Shown: positions 2,545-17,801 of the stretch, in pieces
Layout of the letters: each line of letters starts with the position of its first letter
How positions within the stretch are numbered: the first letter of the stretch is position 1
Assembly (NCBI GenBank): GCA_044228505.1
Contig: JBGAUT010000016.1
Location: forward strand, 43,387 to 107,386
DNA from: Polyangia bacterium
GTDB lineage: Bacteria; Myxococcota_A; Polyangia; Palsa-1104; JAEUJZ01
Direction of reading: 5' to 3'
Length of the DNA: 64,000 nucleotides
Translations under genes and position numbers: made by a program
The notes under the pieces: generated by a model
What the model was told of the DNA's origin: nothing
Seen by the model: the letters and a program-made list of their open reading frames with translations, nothing else
The model's database searches: none

Positions 2545-4407
2545 ATGGCCAAGAGAACACCGATCCTGACCTGCTTCGGACTACTCCTTTGCACTGCAGC
2601 AGCTGGATGTTCTGCCTCGTCGAGTGGGGCGGATGCAATTGCTCCGGTGAATTCCTCCAGCACTGCCGACCGGGCCATCGCGGAGGCAGACATCATTGCG
2701 CTTGATAGCGGCAGGCTCTATGCACTCTCTGCGGCAGGGACGGTCTCTGTGGTAGACGTTTCAGTTCCTAGTCAGCTAGCGCTGCTTGGACAAACGAGAA
2801 TGGCGGGTGAGCCGTTTGAGATGTACCGCAGGGGTGATTTCCTGATCACCATGTGGAATGGATCGTTTTCCGCAACTGGAACCGCGAATCCACCGCTCCC
2901 CGAGCCAAGCAGCACTCGCTATGTTCCACCGCCTCCCCGCGATCCGAACTCCGGTGCTGCGGTCGTGGTGCTCGACGTTCGCGATCCGTCACGAATTCGT
3001 CCGGTGGCAACGTTTCCAGTTCCCGGCGAGTTAGCCGATTCTCGAATCGTGGGCGATGTGTTGTACCTTGCGACCTACCAAAACGCCAAGTGTTACAATT
3101 GTGGTGATACCCAGCGTACTGTGGTTACCAGCTTCGATGTGAAGAACACTCTGTCGCTTCGTCGGGTCGACCAGGTTGTCTTTAAGAGCAATGCACCAGA
3201 GTCTTTCAATTTACCCTGGGGTTCGAACTGGAAGCGGAGTCTGTTTGTCACCAATGAGCGTCTCTACGTTGGCGGACATGCTGACCTTGACCCGCGTCTG
3301 TACGGAGATTCCGCTCAAGCGGCAAAGGAAGGAATCATCGACGTACTTGATGTGACGGATCCCGGAGGTCGACTACAACTTGGCGCTCGGATTGAAGTGG
3401 CTGGAGCGGTACTCAGTCGCTGGCAAATGGAAGAGCGTGATGGTGTGCTGCGGGTCATTAGCCAGCGCGGAGCAGGGCGCACGGGAAATGGTCAGGGAAT
3501 GCCGCAGGTCGACACGTATTCGATCGTGAACACCAAGACCTATCTACCGCTCGGCCACACGTCGATCAAACTGCCTCGGCAAGAAGGTCTGCGCACCGTC
3601 CGTTTTGACAAAGATCGCGCCTATGCCATTACCTACAATCAGACCGATCCACTGTTTACCATCGATCTGAAGGATCCCGCTGTGCCCATGGTTCGGGGTG
3701 AGCTAACCATGCCAGGCTTTATGTACTACCTGGAACCATACGGAGATCGGTTGATTGGTCTGGGAGTCGACCGCGATGACCCGCGAGGAAGCCTGAACGT
3801 CTCTCTGTTCGATGTCAGCAACCTAGACCGACCAAAAATGATCAGCCGGGTTCCATTTGGTACTCGCTCTGTGGGCGAAGACTACGTGGTGATCAACTAC
3901 GAGCTGCCTGAAGATCAGGATCGAATTCAAAAGGCTTTTCGTGTGTTCCCAGATGGCCTCGTTGCCGTTCCCTACTCTGATGTGCGCACCTACTACTCCG
4001 GTGATACTTGTGATTCACTACGGAGTGGAATTCAGTTGATGGACTGGTCCGGAGATTCTTTGGTGAAGCGGGCATTCCTCCCTGTCAAAGGGAATCCTCG
4101 TCGAGCTATTGAGCTGGGAACCGAACTGCTGGCGGTGTCGGATGCTACGGTGAGCTCGTTCTCTTTGGTGGACCATGGCGTTGCCAAGAAGACCGCTGAT
4201 GTGACGATTGGAACCTGCACTCCGCGTGTTTTGCCTGAAAACTATGGTTTTGATGGAGAGGGAGACTACTACGGCTTCGGCCTGTTTGGTTGCACGGTGG
4301 GCGGTCCTACTGTACGGCCTGCACAAGGTGCGGGTGCCGCCGTAGTGTTGCTGTTTGGCCTCCTGCTCCGTTTGATCGCTCGTCGCAAGTCATCCCTCCG
4401 TGCTTGA
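2545..4407 (+). CDS. secreted beta-propeller-like lipoprotein with C-terminal MYXO-CTERM-like sorting tail
   Basis: ATG at 2545 gives MAKRTPILTCFGLLLCTAAAGCS, a lipoprotein signal. The C-terminus is GC...GAGAAVVLLFGLLLRLIARRKSS: Gly/Cys, a hydrophobic helix, then an Arg-rich tail. Confidence 0.6.
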   Translation: MAKRTPILTCFGLLLCTAAAGCSASSSGADAIAPVNSSSTADRAIAEADIIALDSGRLYALSAAGTVSVVDVSVPSQLALLGQTRMAGEPFEMYRRGDFLITMWNGSFSATGTANPPLPEPSSTRYVPPPPRDPNSGAAVVVLDVRDPSRIRPVATFPVPGELADSRIVGDVLYLATYQNAKCYNCGDTQRTVVTSFDVKNTLSLRRVDQVVFKSNAPESFNLPWGSNWKRSLFVTNERLYVGGHADLDPRLYGDSAQAAKEGIIDVLDVTDPGGRLQLGARIEVAGAVLSRWQMEERDGVLRVISQRGAGRTGNGQGMPQVDTYSIVNTKTYLPLGHTSIKLPRQEGLRTVRFDKDRAYAITYNQTDPLFTIDLKDPAVPMVRGELTMPGFMYYLEPYGDRLIGLGVDRDDPRGSLNVSLFDVSNLDRPKMISRVPFGTRSVGEDYVVINYELPEDQDRIQKAFRVFPDGLVAVPYSDVRTYYSGDTCDSLRSGIQLMDWSGDSLVKRAFLPVKGNPRRAIELGTELLAVSDATVSSFSLVDHGVAKKTADVTIGTCTPRVLPENYGFDGEGDYYGFGLFGCTVGGPTVRPAQGAGAAVVLLFGLLLRLIARRKSSLRA

Positions 4408-4546
4408 TTCTGCTCGCCGGTTTCAGCAGACCGGCAGCGCTTGCCTGGAAAATCAGCCACGATGACAGGCCGAGCCGCTTCACCGCTTCCATCGAATCTG
4501 CTCTAACGATATTGTCCGCGACACTGGCTCAACGTACAGTGCCGCC

Positions 4547-5659
4547 ATGTTGGAACTGCAACACACCGACAAAGCCGTTGAGAGCCCAGATTTGTCTCCG
4601 ATTTTCGTGATTGGAACGGGTCGATCGGGAACCACCCTGTTGCGGCAGATGTTGAACGCGCATCCCCGCATTCACATCACACACGAAGCTGCATTCTACA
4701 GCTATGCGCAGCACATGCCAGCGGGTTCATCCGTGGATGAATGGCTGGAGCGTTACTTCGAGACGTTCTCATTTGCGTGGATGCATTTGGATCCACGCGA
4801 GGTTCGCGAGGCGCTGCCAAGGGGTCTATCAAAGGACCAGATGCGCGAGGTGTATCTCACCATCATGAGACTGCAAGCGCGACAGCGGGGCAAGGTGCGC
4901 TTCGGTGAAAAGAATCCTCTCGATACCCACAATCTCCCGCGTATTTTTTCGGACTTTCCGGATGCCAGGGTGATCTGCATCATGCGCGATCCTAGACCGA
5001 CGGTACTGTCGTTCAATCGGATGCCATTTGGCACAACCAGTACGATGCTCAACGCGCAGTTGTGTCGCATTCAGTACGAACACATCAAGCCGTACCTGAA
5101 CCGTATCTTGGAAGTACGGCTGGAAGACCTAACTGCCGAGCCCATGCAGACCATGCGGTCCATCCTGCATTTTGTGGGCGAGCCGTGGGATGACGTGGTG
5201 CTTGATCATGTGAAGCACTCGCAGACCGATGATGTACCGCCACTGCCGTGGTTTGTTGGGGCAACTCAACGAGCACCGAATCAGCGTGAGAGCCGAGGCC
5301 GCGATGAGTTAGATCCGGTGTGGACCCGGATCGTCGAATGGGTGAATCAGGAATCGATGACCCACTATGGGTACGAACGGGCCGTGCTTGTGAAGGAACC
5401 GTCGCGTTGGGAGTATGTCTGGGCATTTTGCAAAGACATAAGAGGCATGGCGGAGGCTGCATATCGTCTGTTGTCCATGAAGCGGCTGCTCGATCGTCAC
5501 TTCCAAGGTCGTGAGCGACTCGACCCTCAACGCGGAATGGAAGAGAACGTGCAGCTTAACCCAGCAGCCTGGAGCAACTATCCACAGTTCGAGATGCCGC
5601 AAGTTCCCCGACCAGCGGCCCTCCTGCCCCGCACGATTCAAACGTCTCAAGGCCAATGA
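4547..5659 (+). CDS. sulfotransferase family protein
   Basis: N-terminal IFVIGTGRSGTTLL PAPS-binding P-loop typical of sulfotransferases; ~370 aa. Confidence 0.65.
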   Translation: MLELQHTDKAVESPDLSPIFVIGTGRSGTTLLRQMLNAHPRIHITHEAAFYSYAQHMPAGSSVDEWLERYFETFSFAWMHLDPREVREALPRGLSKDQMREVYLTIMRLQARQRGKVRFGEKNPLDTHNLPRIFSDFPDARVICIMRDPRPTVLSFNRMPFGTTSTMLNAQLCRIQYEHIKPYLNRILEVRLEDLTAEPMQTMRSILHFVGEPWDDVVLDHVKHSQTDDVPPLPWFVGATQRAPNQRESRGRDELDPVWTRIVEWVNQESMTHYGYERAVLVKEPSRWEYVWAFCKDIRGMAEAAYRLLSMKRLLDRHFQGRERLDPQRGMEENVQLNPAAWSNYPQFEMPQVPRPAALLPRTIQTSQGQ

Positions 5660-5726
5660 ATCGGTAAGGTAGCAGGGTTGTGCCATCGGAACTTCGGCTG
5701 AGAGGAGTCGAGAGGAGTCGAGAGGA

Positions 5727-7073
5727 ATGACGATGAAGAGCAGTCTGCAGCGAGCCGGATCACCGAGAAGTCTTCTATCGCAGCTTATTTCTGCACCTGA
5801 TTTGGTACAAACCGTGCGGGCGCTTCCGGCTCCGGCCTTTTCTGCTTTGATTCGACACGTTGGCGTGGAAGATGCGGGAGAGCTTGTCGCACTGGCGACG
5901 AAAGAGCAGCTCGTGACCGCGTTCGATGAGGATCTCTTTGTCAACACCCGGCCCGGCGAAAGGGAGACGTTCGATGGGGCCCGCTTTGCGGTCTGGCTTG
6001 AAGTCCTTCTCGAAGCTGGTGATGAGGTCGCTGCCCGTCGAGTTGCCGATCTTTCGGAAGACTTTGTGGTGCAGGCGATTTCAAGGCTCATCGTGGTACT
6101 GGATCATGATGCGCTGCTTGGCCGCATGAACGAACGAGGACGCGATGTAGAGTACGCAGACAAGGCGATCGAGCGTGCTCTGTCCGAGGAGATTGATGGG
6201 TATTTGCTGCTCTGTCGGGAGTACGATGGTTGGGACGCGGTGATGTCGCTCATCCTGGCGCTGGATCGGAATCAACGTGATTTTTTGGAACGGATCCTGA
6301 GCCGATGTGCAGCGCTGGCCAGTGGATACCTCGATGATCTAAGTGTGCTCACGGGCATATTGTCCGCAGAGGACTCGCTCAGTGAAGATGTCGAAGCTGA
6401 GCGTGAGGATCGTCGCAGCCAGCAAGGCTACGTAGAGCCTCGTTCCGCCCGAGCGTTCCTTGCACTTGCGAGGCAGCCCGGCGCTTCTGATCGAAAATGG
6501 AGCGAACGCGATCCGATGACGCAGTCCTATTTTCGTGAACTGGCGCGGGCCTCGGCGGCTCTCCCCACGACTGTGCCTTCGGTGGAATCGGCCTCTCCCA
6601 AACTCATGGCTTTGCTCGCTGAAGTTGGAGTTGTGCAGCGTGCACCAGGTCGTGCGTTACTCGGAGCCGCTGCTCCGACGTCGATGAATGCACAGAGTCC
6701 GCTGCTTGCGGCGTTGCAGCTACTGTTTGAACAGAATCCGGAGTGCTTCCATCTGCGAATGGAGGAACTGGCCTATCTTTCTAATGTCCTTGTGGCTGGG
6801 GCCAACAACAAGGGGGCTCGATTCCGTGCAGCGGAAGCGGCCGAAGCGGCGCTGGCGACCTGTCGTTTGGGGGCGCAACTGGTTCACGCGGAACGGAGCG
6901 ATGCTTCGCAGCGTTTGTCTCAGCCCGTGACACCGCAGGCCCTTTGTCAGGTGCTCAAGGCCTATGGTGCCGACCTGCTGTTTCGCAGAGCCAGCAGCAT
7001 GCTGGTCACCCATCATCCCCGCTCACCAGGATTCCTTCGATCTGAGGCAGAACTCGACGAACTGGTAAAATGA
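5727..7073 (+). CDS. hypothetical protein (448 aa)
   Basis: Long ORF with a triple GAGAGGAGTC repeat immediately upstream acting as an SD-like motif. No recognisable motif. Confidence 0.5.
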   Translation: MTMKSSLQRAGSPRSLLSQLISAPDLVQTVRALPAPAFSALIRHVGVEDAGELVALATKEQLVTAFDEDLFVNTRPGERETFDGARFAVWLEVLLEAGDEVAARRVADLSEDFVVQAISRLIVVLDHDALLGRMNERGRDVEYADKAIERALSEEIDGYLLLCREYDGWDAVMSLILALDRNQRDFLERILSRCAALASGYLDDLSVLTGILSAEDSLSEDVEAEREDRRSQQGYVEPRSARAFLALARQPGASDRKWSERDPMTQSYFRELARASAALPTTVPSVESASPKLMALLAEVGVVQRAPGRALLGAAAPTSMNAQSPLLAALQLLFEQNPECFHLRMEELAYLSNVLVAGANNKGARFRAAEAAEAALATCRLGAQLVHAERSDASQRLSQPVTPQALCQVLKAYGADLLFRRASSMLVTHHPRSPGFLRSEAELDELVK

Positions 7074-7096
7074 AGCTGTCTGAATCGTTGCTGTGA

Positions 7097-7711
7097 TTGG
7101 CAGAGTGGATTAGGCTACGGTCCACTTTGTCTGAACAGCGCTCAATCTCGCCCGATGAGATGTTTGACCTGCCGATCCGTCGTTACGACGGGGCAGTCTA
7201 CTTGGTAAGCACGCCGCAAGATCGTGAGCGAGCATTGGCCGACATCAGGACAGAGAGCGTAGTTGGTTTTGACACCGAGACACGACCTGCTTTTCGAAAA
7301 GGAGAGAGCTATCTTCCTTGCCTGGCGCAGGTTGCAACTGCACGAGCGGTCTATTTGTTCCAGCTTCAGCAGCAGGATTTTTCTGCGGAAATGCGAGAGC
7401 TACTGGCCTCCGAGCGAGTCGCCAAAGCAGGGGTTGCTCTGGCCAATGATCTTCGCGGGTTAAAGAAGCTGATCGAGTTCGATGCTCGATCCATCGTCGA
7501 CCTGGATCGGGTGGCGCGACACCATGGATTCAAGCAGCCGGGAGTGCGCAACCTCGCAGGTCTGCTTCTCGGTTTTCGGATTCCCAAAGGAACCAAGACT
7601 TCAAACTGGGCCGCACGACAATTGTCTCCCCAGCAGATTTTGTATGCAGCTACGGATGCGTGGGCGTGTCGGGAGCTATACCTTCGGTTCTGTGAGCTCC
7701 GCCTGGTCTAA
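7097..7711 (+). CDS. 3'-5' exonuclease domain protein (RNase D-like, DEDD family)
   Basis: VGFDTETRP (Exo I motif) and YAATDAWA (Exo III). Track start is TTG 7097; ATG 7160 (MFDLPIRRY) is an alternative start. Confidence 0.65.
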   Translation: MAEWIRLRSTLSEQRSISPDEMFDLPIRRYDGAVYLVSTPQDRERALADIRTESVVGFDTETRPAFRKGESYLPCLAQVATARAVYLFQLQQQDFSAEMRELLASERVAKAGVALANDLRGLKKLIEFDARSIVDLDRVARHHGFKQPGVRNLAGLLLGFRIPKGTKTSNWAARQLSPQQILYAATDAWACRELYLRFCELRLV

Positions 7712-7785
7712 GCCTGGCCATTAGGTGCCCAACTTGGCCTGAGAATCCCATTGTTTGGACGCGGACCGTATGCGATCCTAGCGAG

Positions 7786-8961
7786 GTGAGACTCTGGGGA
7801 CCATACAAGCCCACACCTCCTAAAACGCAGTGGCGACTGGTGATCTCGGAGCACGGCTCGCGACGCTCGGTCTGTTTCAATTCAGAAACCGAGGCACTGC
7901 ATTTTCGAGAGAATCTGCGGGCACAAGCGGCGGATCTTGCAACTCATTCGCTGACCGCAAGACAGGCGATTGAAGAGTACATCTCGGAAAAAGAGCGAGA
8001 GTGTGTGGCGGTCTCTGTGCTTACGGTGAGGGAACGCCTGATGCGATTCCTTCCGCTCGATACGCCGCTCCGTTACTTCGATGACGTGCTTGCTCAGCAG
8101 ATCTATGATCGCGAGGTCCAGCGGATTACCAAGCGAAGGAAGCCTGTGGCTGCCGCAACCCATCGCGCAACCCTTCGAACCACGAAAGAGTTTTGGCGAT
8201 GGTTGGTGATGCGGAAGTACGTGAATCACAATCCCTGGGCGCAGATTCTACCTGTAGGAAGACTGAATCATGGCAAGCCGCAGCCCACCATTGGCCAGGC
8301 GCAGAGGCTGGAGTCCTATTTGGTGGCTGGTGCGCAGGCGAATGAGGGCAAGCTGGCGCTGCTTCTGCAACTATATTGCGGACTCCGCAGCGGGGAAGTA
8401 TTGGCACTGAAGGTTCGAGACATCGAGCAGGTCGTCATTGCAGGAGAACGGGTGATCCAAGTCTGCGTCGACCGTGGAAAAACCAAGCATGCGCGGCGAG
8501 CGGCTCGCGTCGCACCCCGAGTCGGAGAACTCCTCATTGATTACATCAAGGGTCGACCAGCGGAGCAGAGAGTGTTTGCTGCCGATCGCTCCGCTCCGCC
8601 GAAAGGTGCATGGCTTCACAAGAGACTGGCTCTGATCTGTCAGGAGCTCGGATTGCCACAGTACTGTCCGCATAGCCTGCGCGGCCTCAACGCAACGATT
8701 GCGCTGGAGGGCGGTGCTACGATGGAAGCCATTGCCAAGGTTCTCGGTCATGGCAGCACTGCCGTGACGGCCAAGCACTATGCCAAGCCGGACAGCGTCT
8801 TAAATGCCAGCCTTCGAAGGGTTGCGGAAGTCCTGTCGAGTGCGTCTTCCTACGTGGAAGAGTCGGTGGTATCCGAAGAAGCGGCGGTGTCTGCGGTTGT
8901 GAGTTCGCTCAGTCCCGGTCAGCTCGCGCTGCTGCGCAAGGTAATCCTTCAGCACGGTTGA
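7786..8961 (+). CDS. site-specific tyrosine recombinase / phage-type integrase
   Basis: C-terminal catalytic domain with LRSGEVLAL (Arg), HSLRG (H-x-x-R), LGHGS (His) and HYAKP (Tyr nucleophile). Starts at GTG 7786. Confidence 0.75.
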   Translation: MRLWGPYKPTPPKTQWRLVISEHGSRRSVCFNSETEALHFRENLRAQAADLATHSLTARQAIEEYISEKERECVAVSVLTVRERLMRFLPLDTPLRYFDDVLAQQIYDREVQRITKRRKPVAAATHRATLRTTKEFWRWLVMRKYVNHNPWAQILPVGRLNHGKPQPTIGQAQRLESYLVAGAQANEGKLALLLQLYCGLRSGEVLALKVRDIEQVVIAGERVIQVCVDRGKTKHARRAARVAPRVGELLIDYIKGRPAEQRVFAADRSAPPKGAWLHKRLALICQELGLPQYCPHSLRGLNATIALEGGATMEAIAKVLGHGSTAVTAKHYAKPDSVLNASLRRVAEVLSSASSYVEESVVSEEAAVSAVVSSLSPGQLALLRKVILQHG

Positions 8962-9147
8962 CCCTGCGTGTTCAGCTACTGCCGCAACCTCGCTGTCGGA
9001 TGGCGCATACAATGTCATGACGCATCGTGCATGTCAGACGGCAGTGACTGCGATGCCGAACGCAAAGTATCAGAGCTTCCATCGATCTGCTTGTAACATA
9101 GAGCGTGAGAGTGCGCGCCACGGGCCGCCCTATCCGGGTCAGCCATC

Positions 9148-9588
9148 ATGCAAGTCGAATCACCAGAAGCACGGACGTGGATCGGGCAGATCATCGGGAA
9201 CCATCGCCTGGTCCGTGTGCTGGGACGTGGCGGTATGGGAATGGTGTTCGAAGCGGTTCACGAGGGAGTGCTAGGGCGGGCAGCGATCAAGATTCTGCGT
9301 CCCGATGTCACCAGCCGAACGGATGTGACGACTCGCTTCTTCAATGAAGCCCGTGCTGCCAATGCCGTCCAGCATCCAGGCATTGTGCGCATCTTCGATT
9401 GTGGATTTACGGAGTCCGGGGTCGCCTATCTGTCGATGGAGTTCTTGGAAGGGGAGTCGCTTCGATCGCGACTGGCCAGGGTGAGGCAGCTACCCACCAA
9501 GACCGCGCTGCGAGTAGCACGTCAGATTGCCTCAGCGCTTGCAGCCGCGCATCGAGTGAAAATCATCCATCGAGATCTCAAACCCGAT
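9148..9588 (+). pseudogene. Hanks-type Ser/Thr protein kinase, N-terminal fragment (subdomains I-VIb) interrupted after HRDLKPD
   Basis: LGRGGMGMVF (Gly loop), AAIKIL (Lys), HPGIVRIF, SMEFLEGESL, IIHRDLKPD. The frame then reads 10 unrelated codons to a stop at 9621. Confidence 0.7.
9581..9588. repeat. 8-bp direct repeat AACCCGAT (left copy) flanking the insertion in the kinase gene
   Basis: An identical octamer recurs at 13847-13854, exactly where kinase homology resumes. Confidence 0.6.
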
Positions 9589-9754
9589 CATCTTCGCTTT
9601 CGTCTGGCGGCGTTGGGATAGGTTCCATTGTGCGAGTGATAGGGCAGGGAACAAAGTTCGGAAACGATCTGCGCGCTCTCGGTCTGGCACAATTGCGTAG
9701 AGGTCACCGATTGTGGCATCAAAGTACGGTACTAAACCAACGATGGAGACAAAG

Positions 9755-11218
9755 ATGAGTGACACCAAGAAGCTGACTACCGCAGCGGGGGCACCAGTTG
9801 TCGACAACCAGAACTCGATGACCGCCGGTCCGCGAGGACCTCTTTTGATGCAAGACATCTGGTTCCTGGAGAAGCTTGCGCATTTCGACCGCGAAGTGAT
9901 TCCAGAGCGTCGCATGCATGCCAAGGGGTCGAGTGCGTATGGATCATTTACCGTAACACACGACATCTCTAAGTACACCCGAGCGAAGATATTCGCTCAG
10001 GTTGGCAAGAAGACCGATCTGTTTGTTCGCTTCTCCACCGTCGCTGGAGAGCGAGGTGCTGCGGATGCAGAGCGCGACATTCGGGGCTTTGCGATCAAGT
10101 TCTATACCGAGGAAGGAAACTGGGATCTGGTTGGCAACAACACGCCGGTATTCTTCCTTCGTGACCCTCTCAAATTTCCAGACCTAAACCATGCGGTGAA
10201 GCGCGATCCGCGAACCAACTTGCGCAGTGCTCGCAACAATTGGGACTTCTGGACCTCGCTACCGGAGGCGCTGCACCAGATTACCATGACCATGAGTGAG
10301 CGAGGAATTCCCTATTCCTATCGACACATGCATGGATTTGGGAGTCACACCTTCAGCTTGATCAACTCCCAGAACGAGCGCTTCTGGGTGAAGTTCCATC
10401 TGCGGACGCAGCAAGGGATCAAGAATCTGTCTGATGCAGAGGCCGAGGCGATCATTGGCAAGGATCGCGAGAGTCACCAGCGAGATCTGTTTGACAGCAT
10501 TGAGAGACGGGACTTTCCTCGCTGGACGCTGTTCATTCAGGTGATGCCGGAACGGGAAGCCGCCACGTGTCCGTACAACCCGTTTGACCTTACCAAAGTC
10601 TGGCTGCACAAGGACTATCCGCTCATCGAAGTGGGCGTGATGGAGCTGAACCGCAATCCCGAAAACTACTTTGCAGAGGTTGAACAGTCGGCGTTCAATC
10701 CGGCGAACGTGGTGCCCGGAATCGGTTTTTCACCAGATAAGATGCTTCAGGGACGACTCTTTTCGTACGGCGATGCCCAGCGCTATCGGCTTGGGGTGAA
10801 TCATCAGTCCATTCCGGTGAATGCGCCTCGCTGTCCGGTCCATAGCTACCATCGTGATGGCGCGATGCGAGTCGATGGAAACTTCGGAGGTCAGCTTGGC
10901 TATGAACCGAATAGCTATGGACAGTGGCAACAGCAGCCGGGCTTTGCGGAACCTCCGCTCTCGCTGGAGGGGTCCGCAGATCACTGGAACCATCGTCAGG
11001 ATGAAGACTACTACTCCCAGCCAGGCTTGCTGTTCCGGCTCATGACGGGAAACCAGCAGCAGACACTGTTTGATAACACTGCGCGAGCGATGGGTGATGC
11101 ACCAAGAGAGATCAAGCTTCGTCACATCGGCAATTGTCTGAAGGCCGACCCCGCGTATGGAGCAGGTGTCGCAAAGGCACTCGGCCTGCCTCTGAGCGAA
11201 ACGCGCAGCTCATCCTAA
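9755..11218 (+). CDS. katA: monofunctional heme catalase (clade-3-like)
   Basis: [63 protein letters not shown] and the heme-ligand region [22 protein letters not shown] precedes ATG 9755; an in-frame ATG at 9713 is also possible. Confidence 0.85.
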
Positions 11219-11239
11219 CGCCCGTGGATCGACTCCGCA

Positions 11240-13699
11240 TCAACACTTGATCCGTTTCATATCGGGATCGTACAGCGGTCGCAGAGACGCGATCGCTGGA
11301 TAGCGCTGCCCGGCAATGTCTACTTCCCACATGCCTCGATCGAGATACTCTTGATCGAGCGCTTGTCCCGCTTCGATCATGGCCAATCCGACGGCTCCTC
11401 CGATGGTGAAGCCATACGAGGCGGCGCGAATGTATCCGACCGGGTGGCCGTTGCGGTAGACAATCTCAGCATGGAACATCAGTGGCTCCGGATCTTTCAC
11501 CAGCACTTGCACCAGGCGTCGCGTTAGCGGTCCTTCTGCTTTTTTGGCGAGCACTGCATCGCGTCCCAGAAATCCACCCGGCTTCTTTAGATCTACCGCA
11601 AAGCCAAGACCTGCCTCCAAGACCGAGTCGGTGTTGTCGATATCGTGACCATAATCACGGTATCCCTTTTCCATGCGCAAGCTGGCCAGCGCCTTGAGTC
11701 CGGCATGTCGTAAACCGAATTCTGATCCGGTTTCTACAATCCGATCATAGACATGGGGGGCTTGCTCGGAGGGGATGTAGAGTTCGTAGCCCAGCTCACC
11801 CAGATAGGTGATGCGGATACAGAGTGCCCGTGCAAAGCCGATGTCGATTTCGCGGGCGGTGCGGAATGGGAATGCCGTATTGCTAAGATCGGTGGTGGTC
11901 ACCCGTTGCAGCAGCTCTCGCGAGCGAGGTCCTTGAATGTTGATCTGCGCGTAGCCAGAGGTCACATCGGTTACAAAGGCGTGTGCGTGCGCCGGGACAT
12001 GGCGACGCATCCAGGTCTCTGCATGCCGATGAGCGGTGTCTGAGGCTACGACCCAGTATCGCTCATCATCGAGCTTGGTAACGGTCAGGTCCGCTTCGAG
12101 CGTGCCGCCCTCGTTGAGCCACTGCGTGTAGGTGATAAGCCCGCTTGGTCCGTCGACTTGGTTGGCCGACAGATAATTGAGAAGGGCTCCTGCGTCCCGA
12201 CCTTGCACCAAGAACTTCGCCATGAACGACATGTCCATCAAGATCACGCCTTCACGGGTCGCTTGATGCTCTGCTTGCCAGTAGGGAAACCAGTTCTGTC
12301 TGCCAAAGGACAATCGCTCGACCTTTGGCTCGATGCCAGGCGGCGCATACCAGTCCGGTCCTTCCCAACCACTGACGTCCTTAAAGTATGCGCCCTGCGC
12401 GGCCAGCCGATCATAGATGGCCGATCTCTTACAGCCGCGTGCGGTCTGCATGGAGCGCGTAGGATAGTGGCACTGATACACCATTCCAAGCGATTCCACC
12501 GTACGGGTGCGACGGTACTCCGGGTTCGACTGGTATGTGTGGAAGCGATCGATGTGCATGCCGGTGACATCACAGTCGGGTCGACCGTTGATGATCCAAT
12601 GGGCCAACACCCGTCCCATGCCACCACCCGTGATGATTCCGATCGAGTTGAGTCCGGCAGCCACAAAGTAGTTCTTTAGTTCTGGTGCTTCTCCGACCAC
12701 CGGACGCAGATCCGCGGTGAAGCTCTCCGGTCCGCAGAAGAATTTTTTGACTCCTGCATCTAGCGAGATGGGAATTCGCTCCATTGCCTTTTGCAGGTAT
12801 GGACCCATTCGCTCCCAGTCCGGACTGATCTCTCCAAAAGAAAAGTCGTCCGGAATACCACCGACTTTCCACGGAGCACAGACTGGCTCGAACAGACCGA
12901 CAAGCAGGCCGCCGACTTCCTCTCGATAGTATCCGTAGGAGCTGGGGTCTTCGAGAACCGGCAGAGAGGCGGTGAGCTGGGGGATCTTCTCTGTGATGAG
13001 ATAGTAGTGTTCTGCAGCCTGCAATGGAACGTTGACCCCGGCTTGGGCTCCGAGCTGACGTGCCCACATTCCGGCGCAGTTTACCACGTATTCTGCTTCG
13101 ATGTTTCCGTAGGGAGTCTGGACGCCAGTGACCACACCACGCTTGGATAGGAGTCCGATGGCAGGCACTCCTTCCAGGATGGTTGCACCTTGCATTCGGG
13201 CCCCTTTGGCAAGTGCCATTGTGATGTCAACGGGATTGGCACGGCCATCTTCCTTGACGTAGAAACCAGCCAAAATGTCGTCGGTGCGGGCCAATGGAAA
13301 GAGCTGTTCTACTTCCTTAGCGGAAATCTCATGGACATCCACTCCGCAGTGTCGATTGAACGCAGAGACACGCCGGTATTCCTCCAATCGGTCTTCATCC
13401 GCTGCGACTTCGATGAATCCGACCTGCTTGAATCCGGTCGATAGTCCAGTTTCTGCTTCGAGCCGCAGGTACAGATCGCGGGAGTACTTCCTCATCTCAG
13501 TCGATGTCTCAGAGGTCGAACCAAACGTCACGATGAGCCCTGCCGCATGCCAGGTCGTGCCAGAGGTGAGCCGATCCCGCTCGAGTACGACTACGTCCTT
13601 CCATCCCATGTGGGCCAGGTGGTATGCGACGGAGGTTCCGATGATTCCACCGCCAATGACGACAACGCGAGCGCGAGCAGGAAGGTTTGTGGGGTACAT
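11240..13699 (-). CDS. FAD-dependent oxidoreductase fused to a GcvT-like folate-binding domain: dimethylglycine/sarcosine dehydrogenase or dimethylglycine oxidase family (819 aa)
   Basis: N-terminal VVVIGGGIIGTSVAYHL Rossmann dinucleotide motif and TTWHAAGL (the covalent-FAD His region of this family). The C-terminal ~350 aa resemble the aminomethyltransferase (GcvT) fold. The size matches DMGDH/DMGO. Confidence 0.8.
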   Translation of the reverse strand: MYPTNLPARARVVVIGGGIIGTSVAYHLAHMGWKDVVVLERDRLTSGTTWHAAGLIVTFGSTSETSTEMRKYSRDLYLRLEAETGLSTGFKQVGFIEVAADEDRLEEYRRVSAFNRHCGVDVHEISAKEVEQLFPLARTDDILAGFYVKEDGRANPVDITMALAKGARMQGATILEGVPAIGLLSKRGVVTGVQTPYGNIEAEYVVNCAGMWARQLGAQAGVNVPLQAAEHYYLITEKIPQLTASLPVLEDPSSYGYYREEVGGLLVGLFEPVCAPWKVGGIPDDFSFGEISPDWERMGPYLQKAMERIPISLDAGVKKFFCGPESFTADLRPVVGEAPELKNYFVAAGLNSIGIITGGGMGRVLAHWIINGRPDCDVTGMHIDRFHTYQSNPEYRRTRTVESLGMVYQCHYPTRSMQTARGCKRSAIYDRLAAQGAYFKDVSGWEGPDWYAPPGIEPKVERLSFGRQNWFPYWQAEHQATREGVILMDMSFMAKFLVQGRDAGALLNYLSANQVDGPSGLITYTQWLNEGGTLEADLTVTKLDDERYWVVASDTAHRHAETWMRRHVPAHAHAFVTDVTSGYAQINIQGPRSRELLQRVTTTDLSNTAFPFRTAREIDIGFARALCIRITYLGELGYELYIPSEQAPHVYDRIVETGSEFGLRHAGLKALASLRMEKGYRDYGHDIDNTDSVLEAGLGFAVDLKKPGGFLGRDAVLAKKAEGPLTRRLVQVLVKDPEPLMFHAEIVYRNGHPVGYIRAASYGFTIGGAVGLAMIEAGQALDQEYLDRGMWEVDIAGQRYPAIASLRPLYDPDMKRIKC

Positions 13700-13846
13700 A
13701 AAAGGGAGAATAATCTCAGGAGACCTGTGCTCGGCAAGCCCTTGTGTCTGAGCACCGCACGAAGGAACCCATTCTTCCTTTCCCCGCTCATTCCTTGTTC
13801 CTCGTTCTCCGGAGATTTCTCGTCCAATCCTGCCGATTTGTGAGTC

Positions 13847-13854
13847 AACCCGAT
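13847..13854. repeat. 8-bp direct repeat AACCCGAT (right copy)
   Basis: Identical to 9581-9588; encodes the PD of HRDLKPDN in the resumed kinase frame. Confidence 0.6.
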
Positions 13855-15357
13855 AACATCATGCTGGTTCCTGACCAGGACTTCCCTGGTGGAGAGCGGG
13901 TTAAGATCCTCGACTTCGGAATTGCCAAGATGGCCGAGGGCTTAAGTGCTCAGCCACTTCGCACCAAGAGCGACGTACTCATGGGCACTCCGACCTATAT
14001 GGCACCGGAGCAGTGTCGTGGTGCGAAACTCGCGACCGACCGATCCGATGTGTATTCACTCGGGGTCATTTTGTATCAGATGCTTGCGGGGTATCCGCCA
14101 TTTTTGGGGGCCTCGATGGGCGACTTGATCGCGATGCATTTGATGGATGAGCCGCCACGACTAACGGACGCCGTGCCTGAGATCAGTCCCAAGATTGCAA
14201 AGCTCGCCTATGCGATGCTCGCCAAAAAGCCTGATTCTCGACCCTCGATGGAGAAGGCACAAAAGACGCTGCTCCGATTGGAAGAGGAAGCCCAACTGGC
14301 ACCGCCGCTACCGGCAGTGCAGCGAGACATCGAGACGTCGTACGGTGACTCTCAGCACGGCACTGTGGATGTTCCGGATGGGCATCCGAACAGGATTCCT
14401 GCGGATGCAAACGAGCTGAAGGTGCCAGTACCCAATCGGGAAGGAGCGACTGACAAACGTCCGTCGGAAATGAAAGCCGCAGGGTCCTCGCGTCCGTTGC
14501 CGAGCCGTATCGTAACAGACTCTCGTCACGTACATATTCCCAAGCGAACACTTCAAGTCATTATCGCGGCCTTCGTTGCCAGTACACTACTGGTGACGAC
14601 TGGGATTCTGCTGGGAACACAGGCCCGGCGTCCGATAGACCGCAGTGCACGCTCGGTTCTTCCGGAACCGGAACACAGAGACGATGTTCCAGCGTCCTCG
14701 GTTGCACCGCAATCGGCCAGACCAACACCGGAAGTCGCGGCCAGTAGGCCCATTCCAGCGATTCCAGGGGATGTCCCTCCTTCGAGCAAAGCAGACAAAG
14801 GGGGCGCTCCACATCGTGAGCCCACCTTGACCGCCAGCAAACATGTAGACAGCCCGAACGCGACAGGCAGCAAGGTTCATTCTAGTGGTGCGGCGATTGA
14901 AGAGAAGCCGGTCGCTATGGTTGAGGAGAAGCCGGTCAGTGTGGTGGAGCAAAAGCCCCCCACGCAGAGCCCGTCCTCGGTCAGTCCTGAGCAAGCTGTT
15001 CCGGCACAGCCTCCGACGGTGATTGCGCCTCCTCCTCAGGTTGCTCCCGTTCCTAGACCTGTTCCTGTGCCGGAGCGTACTGTCGATGATCCGTTTGATC
15101 CGCTGCGCACCGCAGAGGACTTCATCTTGCAAGGGAACTATCGTCGCGCAATGGATCTGGCCACGCAGTTTGGAAAGCAAGATCCGATGCGTGCTTGGGA
15201 AATCTACGGCCGTGCAGCGTGTGGGATGCGGCTGCAGGACCGGGCGAGTCGGGCGATGCGTGAACTGCAGCAGCGGCATGAAGACCGCCGCATTCAGTCT
15301 CTGCTCGCGTATTGCCGACTTCACAAGCTACCGCTATCTGCGCCTGACTCGCAGTAG
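13847..15357 (+). pseudogene. Ser/Thr protein kinase C-terminal fragment (subdomains VIb-XI) with Pro-rich linker, one TM helix and a small C-terminal helical domain
   Basis: PDNIMLV...ILDFGIAK...GTPTYMAPEQ...DVYSLGVILYQMLAGYPPF, then a P/A/S-rich region, the TM helix IIAAFVASTLLVTTGILLG, and a C-terminal TPR-like tail. The nearest in-frame upstream Met (13744) lies in non-kinase sequence. Confidence 0.65.
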
Positions 15358-15752
15358 TTCGTTCCTAAGGCTTGCGATCAGTGCCCGAGCGTTGTCCTTC
15401 TGCAATCGGCAGCCCGGCCATCTGCTCCTTGCTCATGGCTCCCGAGTAATCGCTGCTTTGGCCATACGGTCGGTCCAGTCGGTGTAGTTTCGCCGTCCTA
15501 TGGTCTAGGCCAGACCGCGACCGTGAAATTGGGCACCAGCACTGGGCTGAGTGTTCTGCAGGTCATCACGAGATCTCATCCGGTTCTCTCCCCGTCGACG
15601 CGAATCGAGTATCAGCACCAAGCAGCCGAAGTTGCGTAGATTCTCAGTAGTTTGGCCGACTCAGGTGATTGCAGAGCGGCAGTGTGTCGCCACTTCCTGA
15701 ACAGTTCCCCTGCAGGATTTGAGGGCGATTTTCTCGTCGCAGGTATTCTTGC

Positions 15753-17801
15753 CTAATGTCCTCGATGGACGATTCCCTGGCTGTGGGCAGTGTCTAGGAC
15801 CGAACAGATCTGGCGGGTCAGTGTAAGGACTCGTGCGATAGGCAGCGGTCGTGGCGCTTTGCCTTTCGGACTGATGATCTCATCGAGCGACTGCCCGTCG
15901 ATGAACTCCATCACCAAGTAGAACAAGGCACCACTCACATTGCCGTGATCGTAGATAAAGACGCTGTTTGGGTGATTGATTTGAGAGGATAGTTTGGCTT
16001 CCCGCTGAAACAGTTCGATGGCATCCGGGGCGACCATTGCTGACGGTGAGAGTACTTTGACCGCTGCTTCCCTGCCGAGCTCCGTGTGGCGAGCCTTGTA
16101 GACCATGCCCATCCCGCCTTCTCCCAGTCGGGCGTAGCAAGTGTACTGACCCACCGTGAAGGGATCGATCTCGCCTCTGCTGGACTTGGCTTCCTCGGCT
16201 TTGGTCGTGGGAAAGGTGTCGGCTTCGCTCCCAGCTCGCTGGGTCTTGGCATTCTGTAACACCAGCAGGCGGTCGCGCCGAATCACCCACAGCAGCAGAC
16301 CGGCACCCAGGGCCGCTGCCAGCGCGATGATGAGCAGTACGATTCCCAAGAACAGCTTCTTCTTGTCTGCGTGCGGAGCAGGTTGTTGCTGCGCCGTCTC
16401 GGGGGAAACGCTCCCGCCCCCGCCCGACCCAGGACTCGGGACCATGAGGCGGTTCTGCGTGGACTCAGCTTGAGCAGGTTCCGCTGGTGGCTCCACTTGA
16501 TCGGATTTTTGCTTTGATGACTCGGTGAGCTTGATGCGCTCATCGTCGTCGCGGCTGTCTGGACCAGGACCACGTACTCTCTGTTTCTTTCCTGCTTGTG
16601 CGGTGCTGGGCGCGGTCTTCGCGGGGGCCTTCTTCAGTTGTTTGGCTTCGGCAGGTACTTGCTTGTGCCCCGTGACCATCGGTCTCGGGGGCGCGGCGGC
16701 ACCAGGGGCGCTAGGGGCTCTCGGTGCTTCAGGGGGCGGGCTTTCGATGGCAAATGAATCAGTTTCGCCTGCGCGTGAAGGTGGTGCCGCACCTTGCTGG
16801 ACGGACGCGGCTTCTGCTCGTGGGCGCGCAGGGGCTCTCGTTGTGCTTTTGGGTTTGAACTTGCGTTTGATGGGTGCGGTGGTCTTTTCTTCTTCTGGTG
16901 CTGGCTGTGCTTTCTTGTCGGCGAGAGGCATCGCCTCCTCAGACGCCTTCCCGATAGGACGAGAAGCCTCCAGCGCGGGCGGCGGGGCTCCGGGTTGGAC
17001 TGCGGCGGGGGCACTGGCTTGCGGTGCGTGCTCGGGGCTGCTGCGCAGAAGCAGCAATGAGCCCGAGGCCAGCAGCAGCACCACCGCAACAAGCAGCGCC
17101 GCGACAGCAGATTTGCTCTTGCGGGCCTGCGCTGGCGAAGCTGGACCTTTTGAACCCTCCGCAAACGCTGAAGCCCGCATCGGAGAGCTCGGTACGGACC
17201 TGGCCGCGCTGTCCTCTTGTGATGCCGACGATGCAGCTGGGACCGCGTGCTGTGCGGTATCGAGCAGCTTTGCAACCAGCTCGTCCAACGATCGTGGTCG
17301 TGCGGCAGGTTGCTTATCGAGCGCATGCAATAGCGTCTGCGCAAGCTCGGCGGACAGCTCGGGTCGTAGGCTGCGCGGATTCTCGGGCCGCTCTAGCAGA
17401 ACCTTGATCCGGATGGCGGCGGGGCTGCTTCCGGCAAACGGAGGCTGTCCGGTTAGCAGATGGTAAGCGACCGCAGCGACGTGGTAGACCGTGCTCGCCA
17501 CTGCCTCGGGCTTGCCTGCAAAGACCTCTGGCGCGACGTAGGCTGCGACCAAATCGACAGATGGATCTTTGGCTGCCTCGGGCCCAGCAAGGGTGATGGC
17601 AGAAAGCTCACCGATGGATTCGTCCCCGGTCGCTGAGGTGACCAGTTTGACCTGCGATGGGTGAACAAGCCGTGCCTTGCCATCGGTAAGCTGCGATGAC
17701 AGCGTCTTACATAGCTCGCTGACCAGACGAAGTACACGCGGAATATCGTGACTTCCGGCCAGCGAAGCCATCGTTTGCGCTTCGCTTTCGCTGCTCGACA
17801 T
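15753..17801 (-). CDS. anomalous 682-aa ORF: degenerate kinase C-lobe (pseudokinase-like) at the N-terminus, Pro/Ala-rich region, one TM helix, then a canonical kinase N-lobe ending ...GIVHRGH-stop
   Basis: The C-terminal part reads LGEGGMGMVYKARH...AVKVL...HPNSV...VMEFIDGQSL...IVHRG then stop, and nothing kinase-like follows in any frame. The N-terminal part reads ARLVHPSQVKL (catalytic D, K and N all replaced), then YVAPEV and LLTGQPPFAG. A possible TM helix is LFLGIVLLIIALAAALGAGLLLWVI. Confidence 0.5.
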   Translation of the reverse strand: MSSSESEAQTMASLAGSHDIPRVLRLVSELCKTLSSQLTDGKARLVHPSQVKLVTSATGDESIGELSAITLAGPEAAKDPSVDLVAAYVAPEVFAGKPEAVASTVYHVAAVAYHLLTGQPPFAGSSPAAIRIKVLLERPENPRSLRPELSAELAQTLLHALDKQPAARPRSLDELVAKLLDTAQHAVPAASSASQEDSAARSVPSSPMRASAFAEGSKGPASPAQARKSKSAVAALLVAVVLLLASGSLLLLRSSPEHAPQASAPAAVQPGAPPPALEASRPIGKASEEAMPLADKKAQPAPEEEKTTAPIKRKFKPKSTTRAPARPRAEAASVQQGAAPPSRAGETDSFAIESPPPEAPRAPSAPGAAAPPRPMVTGHKQVPAEAKQLKKAPAKTAPSTAQAGKKQRVRGPGPDSRDDDERIKLTESSKQKSDQVEPPAEPAQAESTQNRLMVPSPGSGGGGSVSPETAQQQPAPHADKKKLFLGIVLLIIALAAALGAGLLLWVIRRDRLLVLQNAKTQRAGSEADTFPTTKAEEAKSSRGEIDPFTVGQYTCYARLGEGGMGMVYKARHTELGREAAVKVLSPSAMVAPDAIELFQREAKLSSQINHPNSVFIYDHGNVSGALFYLVMEFIDGQSLDEIISPKGKAPRPLPIARVLTLTRQICSVLDTAHSQGIVHRGH

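Follow-up and report, generated by a model that had tools for sequence, protein, structure and literature searches.

Kinase A, a Hanks-type Ser/Thr kinase gene in a 64,000-nucleotide stretch of Polyangia DNA (the window, to which coordinates refer unless another locus is named), is split at its catalytic loop by a 4258-bp insert. A forward open reading frame (ORF) at 9148..9621 encodes a Hanks-kinase N-lobe as far as ...KIIHRDLKPD, then 10 unrelated codons (HLRFRLAALG) and a stop at 9621. The remainder of kinase A is held in a second forward ORF, 13744..15357, downstream of the insert. An 8-bp sequence, AACCCGAT, forms the codons K-P-D of kinase A and is present at both junctions; a scan of both strands of the 64-kb window found just these two copies. 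The bases beside the copies differ (A versus C before them, C versus A after them), and thus the repeat is exactly 8 bp long. The parts of the locus are listed here; loci used for comparison are numbered with L.

9148..9588, forward strand: N-terminal fragment of kinase A, with the Gly loop, the VAIK lysine and HRDLKPD (positions 1-138 of a kinase hidden Markov model, HMM)
9581..9588, forward strand: AACCCGAT core, left copy (attL side)
9589..13846, no strand assigned: the insert, an integrase-less element resembling a cis-mobilizable element (CIME), 4258 bp, absent from L001, L002 and L003
9589..9660, forward strand: left arm of the insert, aligning with weak homology to the left arms of L088 and L029
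9755..11218, forward strand: catalase gene, cargo (Pfam Catalase, E = 7e-192, plus Catalase-rel)
11240..13699, reverse strand: oxidase gene, cargo (Pfam DAO / FAO_M / GCV_T / GCV_T_C; 819 aa)
13760..13846, forward strand: right arm of the insert, ending ...TTTCTCGTCCAATCCTGCCGATTTGTGAGTC and ~75% identical to the right arm of element 1 in L088
13847..13854, forward strand: AACCCGAT core, right copy (attR side)
13855..15357, forward strand: C-terminal fragment of kinase A, with NIMLV, DFG, APE, the C-lobe, a Pro-rich linker, a transmembrane helix and a C-terminal domain (HMM positions 134-277)

Joining 9148-9588 to 13855-15357 in silico yields a 647-aa protein with a single unbroken Pkinase match (residues 22-284 against profile positions 4-259 of 263, E = 6e-50). 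This excision product is collinear with intact orthologues, and the ORF is restored. An earlier note on this DNA had described a kinase N-lobe that diverges abruptly into 10 junk codons and a stop, kinase homology that resumes 4.26 kb downstream (it ends at 9588 and restarts at 13847), the octamer at both junctions, one complete Hanks kinase in the two fragments, and no inverted repeats at the insert ends. Our analysis agrees on each of these, including the last: a repeat search and inspection of the ends found no inverted repeats linking the termini of the insert. The note had also called the octamer a target-site-like duplication left by a staggered cut. Our reading keeps the staggered cut, which tyrosine recombinases also make, but not a duplication of the transposase type. 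The octamer is better read as the crossover core of a tyrosine recombinase, because the same core flanks other cargo elsewhere, occurs three times in a tandem array and in one case lies beside an integrase gene.

The only genes in the insert are those for the catalase and the oxidase, which are convergent, and its non-coding ends are ~150 nt long. The catalase ORF opens with GTG at 9713, although its likely start is ATG at 9755. A look-up of the exact catalase protein gave no record. The oxidase is like dimethylglycine, sarcosine or 4-methylaminobutanoate oxidase, and an oxidase of this H2O2-forming type together with a catalase could plausibly make a functional cassette. No transposase was detected in 9589-13846 among the ORFs or by Pfam. 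The GC content of the insert (0.54-0.59) does not contrast with that of its flanks, and composition is therefore uninformative as a signal of foreign DNA. Homologues of the oxidase are 80-88% identical across Polyangia. In L005 and L006 (10001-12469) the oxidase gene has an ordinary operon-like setting, with a CoA-transferase gene upstream and an alpha-amylase gene overlapping downstream, and lies ~5 kb from an intact copy of a second kinase gene (kinase B, below). The insert may have acquired its cargo locally, from chromosomal genes nearby.

Empty and occupied alleles of kinase A

The uninterrupted allele that the earlier note proposed to look for in relatives exists. Spliced kinase A has full-length orthologues (100% of length), P0001 at 88% identity (631 aa) and P0002 and P0003 at 81%, and their metagenomic contigs, L001, L002 and L003, carry the gene intact with a single AACCCGAT. 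All three are syntenic with the window through genes for a sulfotransferase, a 3'-5' exonuclease, a tyrosine recombinase and the kinase; L003 additionally has the window's downstream 682-aa kinase, a hexapeptide transferase and FliQPO. The note had allowed that an orthologue might not correspond to this locus, or that the two halves might come from different paralogues. Neither is the case, as the intact syntenic orthologues match both halves. When each contig is aligned to the window by BLASTN, the match falls into two pieces whose overlap is exactly the 8-mer (L001 1-5203 matches 4361-9588, and L001 5196-6694 matches 13847-15396), which implies an unoccupied site, ...GATCTCAAACCCGATAACATC..., with one core. 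Excision of the insert would be expected to give the joints ...CATCGAGATCTCAAACCCGATAACATCATGCTGG... for attB and ...GATTTGTGAGTCAACCCGATCATCTTCGCTTTCG... for attP. An independent JGI contig, L004, matches 13462-15624 at 99.7% identity, and the right junction is thus not an assembly artefact. A further contig, L167, encodes a recombinase 99% identical to the one upstream of kinase A and ends 126 nt into kinase A, short of the junction.

In four other lineages the orthologous kinase A is broken at the same core by different cargo. L007 (metagenome-assembled genome, MAG, GCA_016794365.1) has an insert of ~12.4 kb at the same point, with an RND efflux system and genes for an isochorismatase, an amidohydrolase, a DUF1275 protein and an oxidase. 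Its right junction reads ...ATACAG, AACCCGAT, AACGTCATGCTGG. In L007 the kinase has decayed, with a mutated left core and a C-fragment that breaks off after DFGIA. L029 (MAG JAEUKA01; L147 is the same sequence) has an insert of ~4.6 kb with, in order, a tyrosine recombinase (Int2), the oxidase and a lipoprotein gene, and AACCCGATAA at both junctions. In L087 the N-fragment ends with AAACCCGA, followed by another, different insert. The flanks of L087 are 96% identical to L003, and an IS630-family transposase gene (L087 5203-6471) lies ~450 bp inside its insert. Int2 is placed as follows.

L029 5516..6715, antisense to the kinase: Int2, tyrosine recombinase; its stop codon is 84 bp from the left junction

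L088, the fourth case, has the window's catalase and oxidase genes at 88.6-89.1% identity (88.6%, in DNA, for the catalase) plus one more ORF. The right end of this element 1, ...GCGAGTC, is followed by a second AACCCGAT at 17133, a second 116-nt left arm and unrelated cargo (an ABC transporter and others). The two 116-nt arms form a direct repeat (11789-11904 and 17133-17248, 98% identity), and each begins with the AACCCGAT core. L088 is thus a head-to-tail array of two elements with 3 cores, one core per joint, and contains within it an attP-equivalent joint of right arm, core and left arm. The fetched sequence of L088 is 21 kb long, and an integrase-bearing partner of the array would lie past it. 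The repeat is 10 bp long in both L029 and L088. The oxidase gene sits at the same end of the insert in the window, L007, L029 and L088; that of L088 element 1 is without its first ~57 codons. Long kinase matches in L016, L017, L019 and L063 were considered as further insertions and set aside, as they are tandem kinase genes.

The exonuclease-integrase-kinase N flank of L088 is 99.0% identical to that of the empty L003 (over 2.5 kb) and 85% identical to the window, and the flank closest to the window is that of the empty L001, at 90%. On the tree ((window, L001), (L003, L088, L087)) occupancy reads +, -, -, +, +. Precise gains or losses at this site have therefore occurred on more than one occasion, and in the population of L003 and L088 very recently.

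Despite the interruption, kinase A is not evolving as a pseudogene. With L003 as the outgroup, the window branch of the spliced gene has 58 synonymous and 27 non-synonymous changes, and the ratios of non-synonymous to synonymous divergence (dN/dS) on the window branch and on the intact L001 branch are as follows.

Whole gene: window branch 0.16, L001 branch 0.19
N-fragment: window branch 0.08, L001 branch 0.04
C-lobe: window branch 0.04, L001 branch 0.05

Between the kinase A genes of the window and L029, both of them interrupted, dN/dS is 0.07-0.08 at a synonymous divergence (dS) greater than 1. Both halves are thus under strong purifying selection, and so the insertion is either recent in the window strain or still reversible. 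Comparison of the window with L088 gives a dS for the cargo (0.50-0.52) close to that for the flanks (0.53-0.60); for the catalase gene, dS is 0.52 and dN/dS is 0.04. Such similar values would be expected if cargo and host had long resided together and the empty lineages had lost the element precisely, and repeated re-integration fits equally.

The enclosing island and the integrase family

Two matters lay beyond the view of the earlier note: kinase A is carried by a larger island, by which a second kinase is truncated, and the insert has relatives in a wider family of elements. The features of the window that bear on the larger island (Island 1) are these; a slash in a kinase motif marks the point of a break.

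7786..8961, forward strand: Int1, tyrosine recombinase (Pfam Phage_integrase, E = 1e-13), directly upstream of kinase A
15664..15761, reverse strand: right-end arm of Island 1, in common with the circular form of L001; arm motif GCGACGAGAA
15753..17801, reverse strand: kinase B, truncated, 682 aa, ending ...QGIVHR/GH and a stop; the C-lobe is absent here

Int1 lies outside the 4258-bp insert and is present in the empty-site loci L001-L003 too. It is the integrase of the enclosing island of ~18.8 kb, not of the insert. We considered integron-like capture of the insert by Int1 and rejected it, since Int1 belongs to the enclosing island, crosses over at HR/D of kinase B and occurs at empty sites.

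L001 and L002 come from two ENA samples and are 99.9-100% identical circular permutations of each other, which close an 18,781-bp circle (or tandem); this length is that of the 18,922-bp contig minus the overlap of k = 141. The circle carries a Che operon, genes for a beta-propeller protein, a sulfotransferase, a DUF6178 protein and an exonuclease, Int1 and intact kinase A. Its joint holds 19 nt from kinase B, CAGGGAATCGTCCATCGAG, and after them the arm that the window has at 15664-15761 (in BLASTN, L001 6825-6940 matches 15664-15779). The presence of kinase B sequence and arm at this joint indicates that the window from 1 to ~15761 is an integrated copy of the island in kinase B, with the right junction at about 15761/15762. 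The left junction is absent from every fetched locus; we infer that it lies ~7.5 kb beyond the start of the window. Kinase B matches only positions 2-122 of the Pkinase profile (residues 554-680). The gene is truncated identically in L003, and it is intact in L005 and L006, where it encodes 789 aa and reads GQGIVHRDLKPHNVMV...DFG.... The insert is thus nested in kinase A, kinase A in Island 1, and Island 1 in kinase B.

Two smaller observations concern the island and its target. The DUF6178 gene (5727-7073) is present in the window, L001 and L002 and is missing from L003, L087 and L088, which are otherwise syntenic. Within its N-terminal region (17265-17546, reverse strand), kinase B has the relic of a kinase C-lobe, which covers HMM positions 182-275 and reads LVHPSQVKL at a degenerate HRD motif. 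The relic precedes the true kinase domain and is kept in L003 (11659-11940) and L005 (19446-19727); an earlier recombination event between kinase genes may have left it as a scar.

Breaks in kinase genes are widespread next to integrases of this kind. An alignment of six integrases was used to scan metagenome contigs. From the 364 relatives detected we fetched 80 loci, and the six-frame ORFs of all loci were scanned with a kinase-domain HMM built from 98 sequences. Some 25 of the 80 integrase loci adjoin kinase fragments broken at the HRD motif or at the alphaC motif RFxNEA, with direct repeats of 11-20 bp. The breaks in the catalytic loop fall at HMM positions of about 127-137. In at least 10 loci (L030, L113, L114, L116, L124, L127, L130, L134, L137 and L157) a divergent kinase C-fragment that begins (I/V/F)HRDxKPxN is found upstream of the integrase, at a distance of 127-156 nt. 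In at least five, an N-fragment ending at the catalytic loop lies downstream of the integrase stop: at HR/D in L106, L117, L125 and L146 (90-170 nt past the stop) and at KPD in L029 (84 nt). The six full-length C-fragments that were compared (L030, L114, L124, L130, L134 and L157) have a mutual identity of just 34-54%, indicating that six different kinases are targeted. L130 contains a whole 9.1-kb element with both junctions and the direct repeat ATCCACAGGGA. In the alphaC-site subfamily (L105, L108, L109, L121, L129 and L142), kinases are split at the codons of RFFNEA with repeats of 17-20 bp, such as TCACCCGCTTCTTCAACGAA in L105. The integrases of this subfamily share 81-89% identity with Int2, except that of L129 (67%). 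The element of L129 is a minimal one of 3.2 kb, with the integrase and one gene for a beta-helix protein.

The elements also share an arm motif, TCGTCGAGAA, which is located on the side of the N-fragment, 10-21 nt into the element, and is mostly in direct orientation. Of 18 junction arms, 14 contain it with at most 2 mismatches, versus 6.8% of random 70-nt windows, a contrast that is somewhat inflated because the motif was derived from some of the same sequences. No inverted-repeat core-binding sites could be convincingly defined at the junctions. Int1 and Int2 fall below the cut-off of every specific NCBIfam model, and Int1 matches only generic Xer-like models, also below cut-off. A search of IMG/VR gave one match to the integrase family, at 29% identity; an association with phages was rejected, as the family is essentially absent from that database.

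Many contigs among L095-L155 begin 14-300 bp upstream of the integrase start (for example L112, L116, L123, L127, L131-L133, L136, L137, L141, L150, L153 and L155), where longer contigs have the kinase junction. Assemblies may break there on account of coexisting occupied and empty alleles or of the repeated kinase motif.

Origin of the insert and comparison with known elements

We consider it likely that the insert belongs to a Polyangia-type family of small integrative 'islets', that it has lost its own integrase, and that it arrived by site-specific integration, catalyzed by a tyrosine recombinase, into the codons of a Hanks-kinase motif. In the mechanism that we propose, a circular element with an attP of the same 8-10-bp core would recombine with the kinase gene, and the integrase would make a staggered cut across the core and so leave a copy at each side. 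The integrase could have been lost later, or the element could have arrived by tandem accretion, with the catalase and the H2O2-forming-type oxidase kept as cargo. The inserted element would part the N-lobe and HRDLKPD from the rest of kinase A and should inactivate the kinase. A cognate integrase supplied in trans, excising across the two cores, would rebuild the ORF exactly.

Several points weigh against this proposal. ORF and HMM searches found no integrase in 9589-13846, nor was a cognate one seen in the rest of the 64 kb. The left arm is ~130 nt shorter than that of L088. Its motif, TCGTCTGGCG at 9600-9609, has a nearly equal offset (11 nt, versus 11 nt in L029 and 10 nt in L088) and is degenerate, with 4 mismatches to TCGTCGAGAA; the shortened and divergent arm suggests that the window's copy is decaying. 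Neither an empty site at ~100% identity to the window strain nor, in a search of all fetched loci, the excised attP joint of the window's insert was found. Int1 is a 36%-identical paralogue of Int2 and has its own site, HR/D of kinase B. Int2 is 81-86% identical to integrases of elements that occupy the alphaC site and not KPD, and its link to the KPD core is thus one that we only infer. Just the right junction of Island 1 lies in the window, and recombination at this locus is proposed here from the comparison of sequences.

It is conceivable, although we doubt it, that the insert is still active, as a gene-intervening element excised in trans that acts as an on/off switch for kinase A in the manner of skin in sigK, SPbeta in spsM and gin in gerE. 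The cognate integrase would then be encoded at another place in the genome, and excision might be limited to certain conditions or to some of the cells. A switch of this kind concerns present function, not origin, and is compatible with integration as proposed above. The two halves of kinase A have neither stops nor frameshifts, and a functional gene would account for the low dN/dS both on the window branch (0.04-0.16) and between two interrupted alleles at dS > 1 (0.07-0.08), but a recent insertion explains low values equally well. The matching divergence of cargo and host suggests long residence, the empty and the occupied allele occur side by side in flanks that are 99% identical, reconstitution in silico is precise, and there are known precedents with 9-bp cores (PMC5595907). 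However, there is no integrase or directionality factor in or beside the insert, the left arm is degenerate, and no empty-site or attP contig of the window strain was found. In addition, the decayed kinase of L007 indicates that interruption can be terminal.

Other origins fit the evidence poorly. A non-autonomous DDE-type transposon or composite element, mobilized in trans and flanked by a true 8-bp target-site duplication, would explain a direct repeat at the edges of an insert that has no recombinase inside, and the insert of L087 does contain an IS630-family transposase gene. That gene lies well inside its insert, however, and IS630 makes TA duplications. We rejected a transposon as the source, since the element's own ends carry no inverted or direct repeats and the insert has no transposase, and we regard it as very improbable. 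Five lineages have different cargo at the identical site, all copies found are at this one site, the repeat has no fixed length (8-10 bp at the KPD core and 11-20 bp in sister elements), a third core lies between the two elements of the L088 array, and integrase genes are at fixed spacing from the junctions. Least probable of all, and in our view almost negligible, is that the insert is an assembly chimera or the product of a single illegitimate event, for instance the capture of a piece of chromosome by end joining at a staggered break. The cargo does consist of ordinary, lineage-typical metabolic genes with host-like composition, and the oxidase gene of L005 has an ordinary chromosomal context. 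However, independent contigs reproduce both types of junction (L004 and L088), the same site is repeatedly occupied by elements with homologous arms, and the insert fits the wider pattern of the family.

Among known systems, the insert can be compared with the CIMEs, defined in a review that also covers tandem accretion of ICESt1/ICESt3-type islands in Streptococcus (PMC5704250). Both CIMEs and the insert are without integration or transfer genes; CIMEs are nevertheless bounded by attL/attR-type sites, and the insert by putative sites of this type. In the insert both cores are intact and the right arm retains ~75% identity to that of L088, although the left arm is shortened with a degenerate motif. 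Relatives in both systems form head-to-tail arrays with one core per junction, as with the 3 cores and two elements of L088, and the presumed route is also alike: integration, decay of the integrase, and accretion of further elements at the hybrid site. In contrast to the streptococcal elements, the insert is in a myxobacterium and has no conjugation genes, and its mobilization in cis would be hypothetical. Whereas CIMEs sit at a transfer RNA (tRNA) gene or the 3' end of a gene, the insert lies in the middle of a catalytic motif and destroys its target gene.

The closest resemblance is to the gene-intervening elements of spore formers, such as gin, and to integrase clades with a protein-gene target. 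Gene-intervening elements share other properties with the insert. The nifD (11-bp repeats), fdxN and hupL elements of heterocystous cyanobacteria are of this type. Here too the coding sequence of a functional gene is cut between short direct repeats, recombination restores the ORF, the interrupted gene is under purifying selection, and the element is possibly non-viral, with little beyond cargo and recombinase. Elements of the skin, SPbeta, gin and nifD types encode their own recombinase, often a serine recombinase, whereas the insert is without one. Their excision has been shown by experiment to be developmentally regulated in terminally differentiating cells, whereas regulated excision of the insert would be hypothetical. 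Each of them targets a single gene, such as spsM for SPbeta (PMC4191935) or gerE for gin, with a 9-bp core (PMC5595907), whereas the target here is a motif of a large paralogous family.

Some IS/MITE-like (insertion sequence or miniature inverted-repeat transposable element) 'mobile insertion cassettes' carry passenger genes and make 8-bp target duplications. Like them, the insert has passengers without a transposase between short direct repeats; unlike them, it has no terminal inverted repeats, occupies a fixed site with a repeat of variable length in its relatives, and is associated with an integrase rather than a transposase. The dusA-specific integrases are a clade tied to a protein-gene target (PMC4482086), and in both systems clades of tyrosine integrases use one conserved coding position and bring variable island cargo. 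At dusA, islands insert into a single-copy gene whose 5' end they regenerate, whereas the kinase subfamilies use HRDLKPxN and RFxNEA in many paralogues, do not regenerate the gene, and have elements that nest in kinases borne by other elements.

Kinase-motif-docking integrase islands in myxobacteria seem to be undescribed; full-text searches turned up gene-intervening elements, CIMEs and dusA integrases, and no description of kinase-motif-targeting integrases within the literature that was searched. Site-specific islands normally use tRNA genes or one conserved gene, and we know of no case comparable to integrases that dock on codons shared by kinase catalytic motifs. If the proposal is correct, it would be a new strategy of targeting to dock on motif codons that many paralogous kinases have in common. 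With up to hundreds of Hanks-type kinases encoded in myxobacteria, a single genome would offer many alternative landing sites. Genes called as truncated kinases in myxobacterial MAGs would then be split, and not necessarily dead. Signalling kinases could readily be silenced in a reversible way, and elements could nest and accrete cargo, which here includes the pair of oxidase and catalase and a whole chemotaxis operon. The family could also be a source of recombinases with defined, short, protein-coding target cores. In practice, annotation of the window should mark both kinase A and kinase B as genes that nested integrative elements interrupt.

We speculate, with considerable reserve, that a dedicated clade of tyrosine recombinases and its islets use HRDLKPxN and RFxNEA codons as multi-copy sites, reversibly switch kinases and nest in one another. 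The window's insert would then be a 'kinase-intervening element' of long residence that can be excised in trans, rather than a dead insertion. If so, recombination between sites in different kinases could drive rearrangement of the kinome.

Kinase genes carried by elements are found elsewhere in the group and may be a regular feature that supplies fresh attachment sites for nesting. In L030, from a distant Polyangia MAG, an integrase gene is directly followed by a complete Ser/Thr kinase gene (8304-11491), an arrangement like that at 7786-15357, with 53% identity between the kinases. The L030 element that has this integrase-kinase pair at its edge interrupts a different kinase, at K/PSN.

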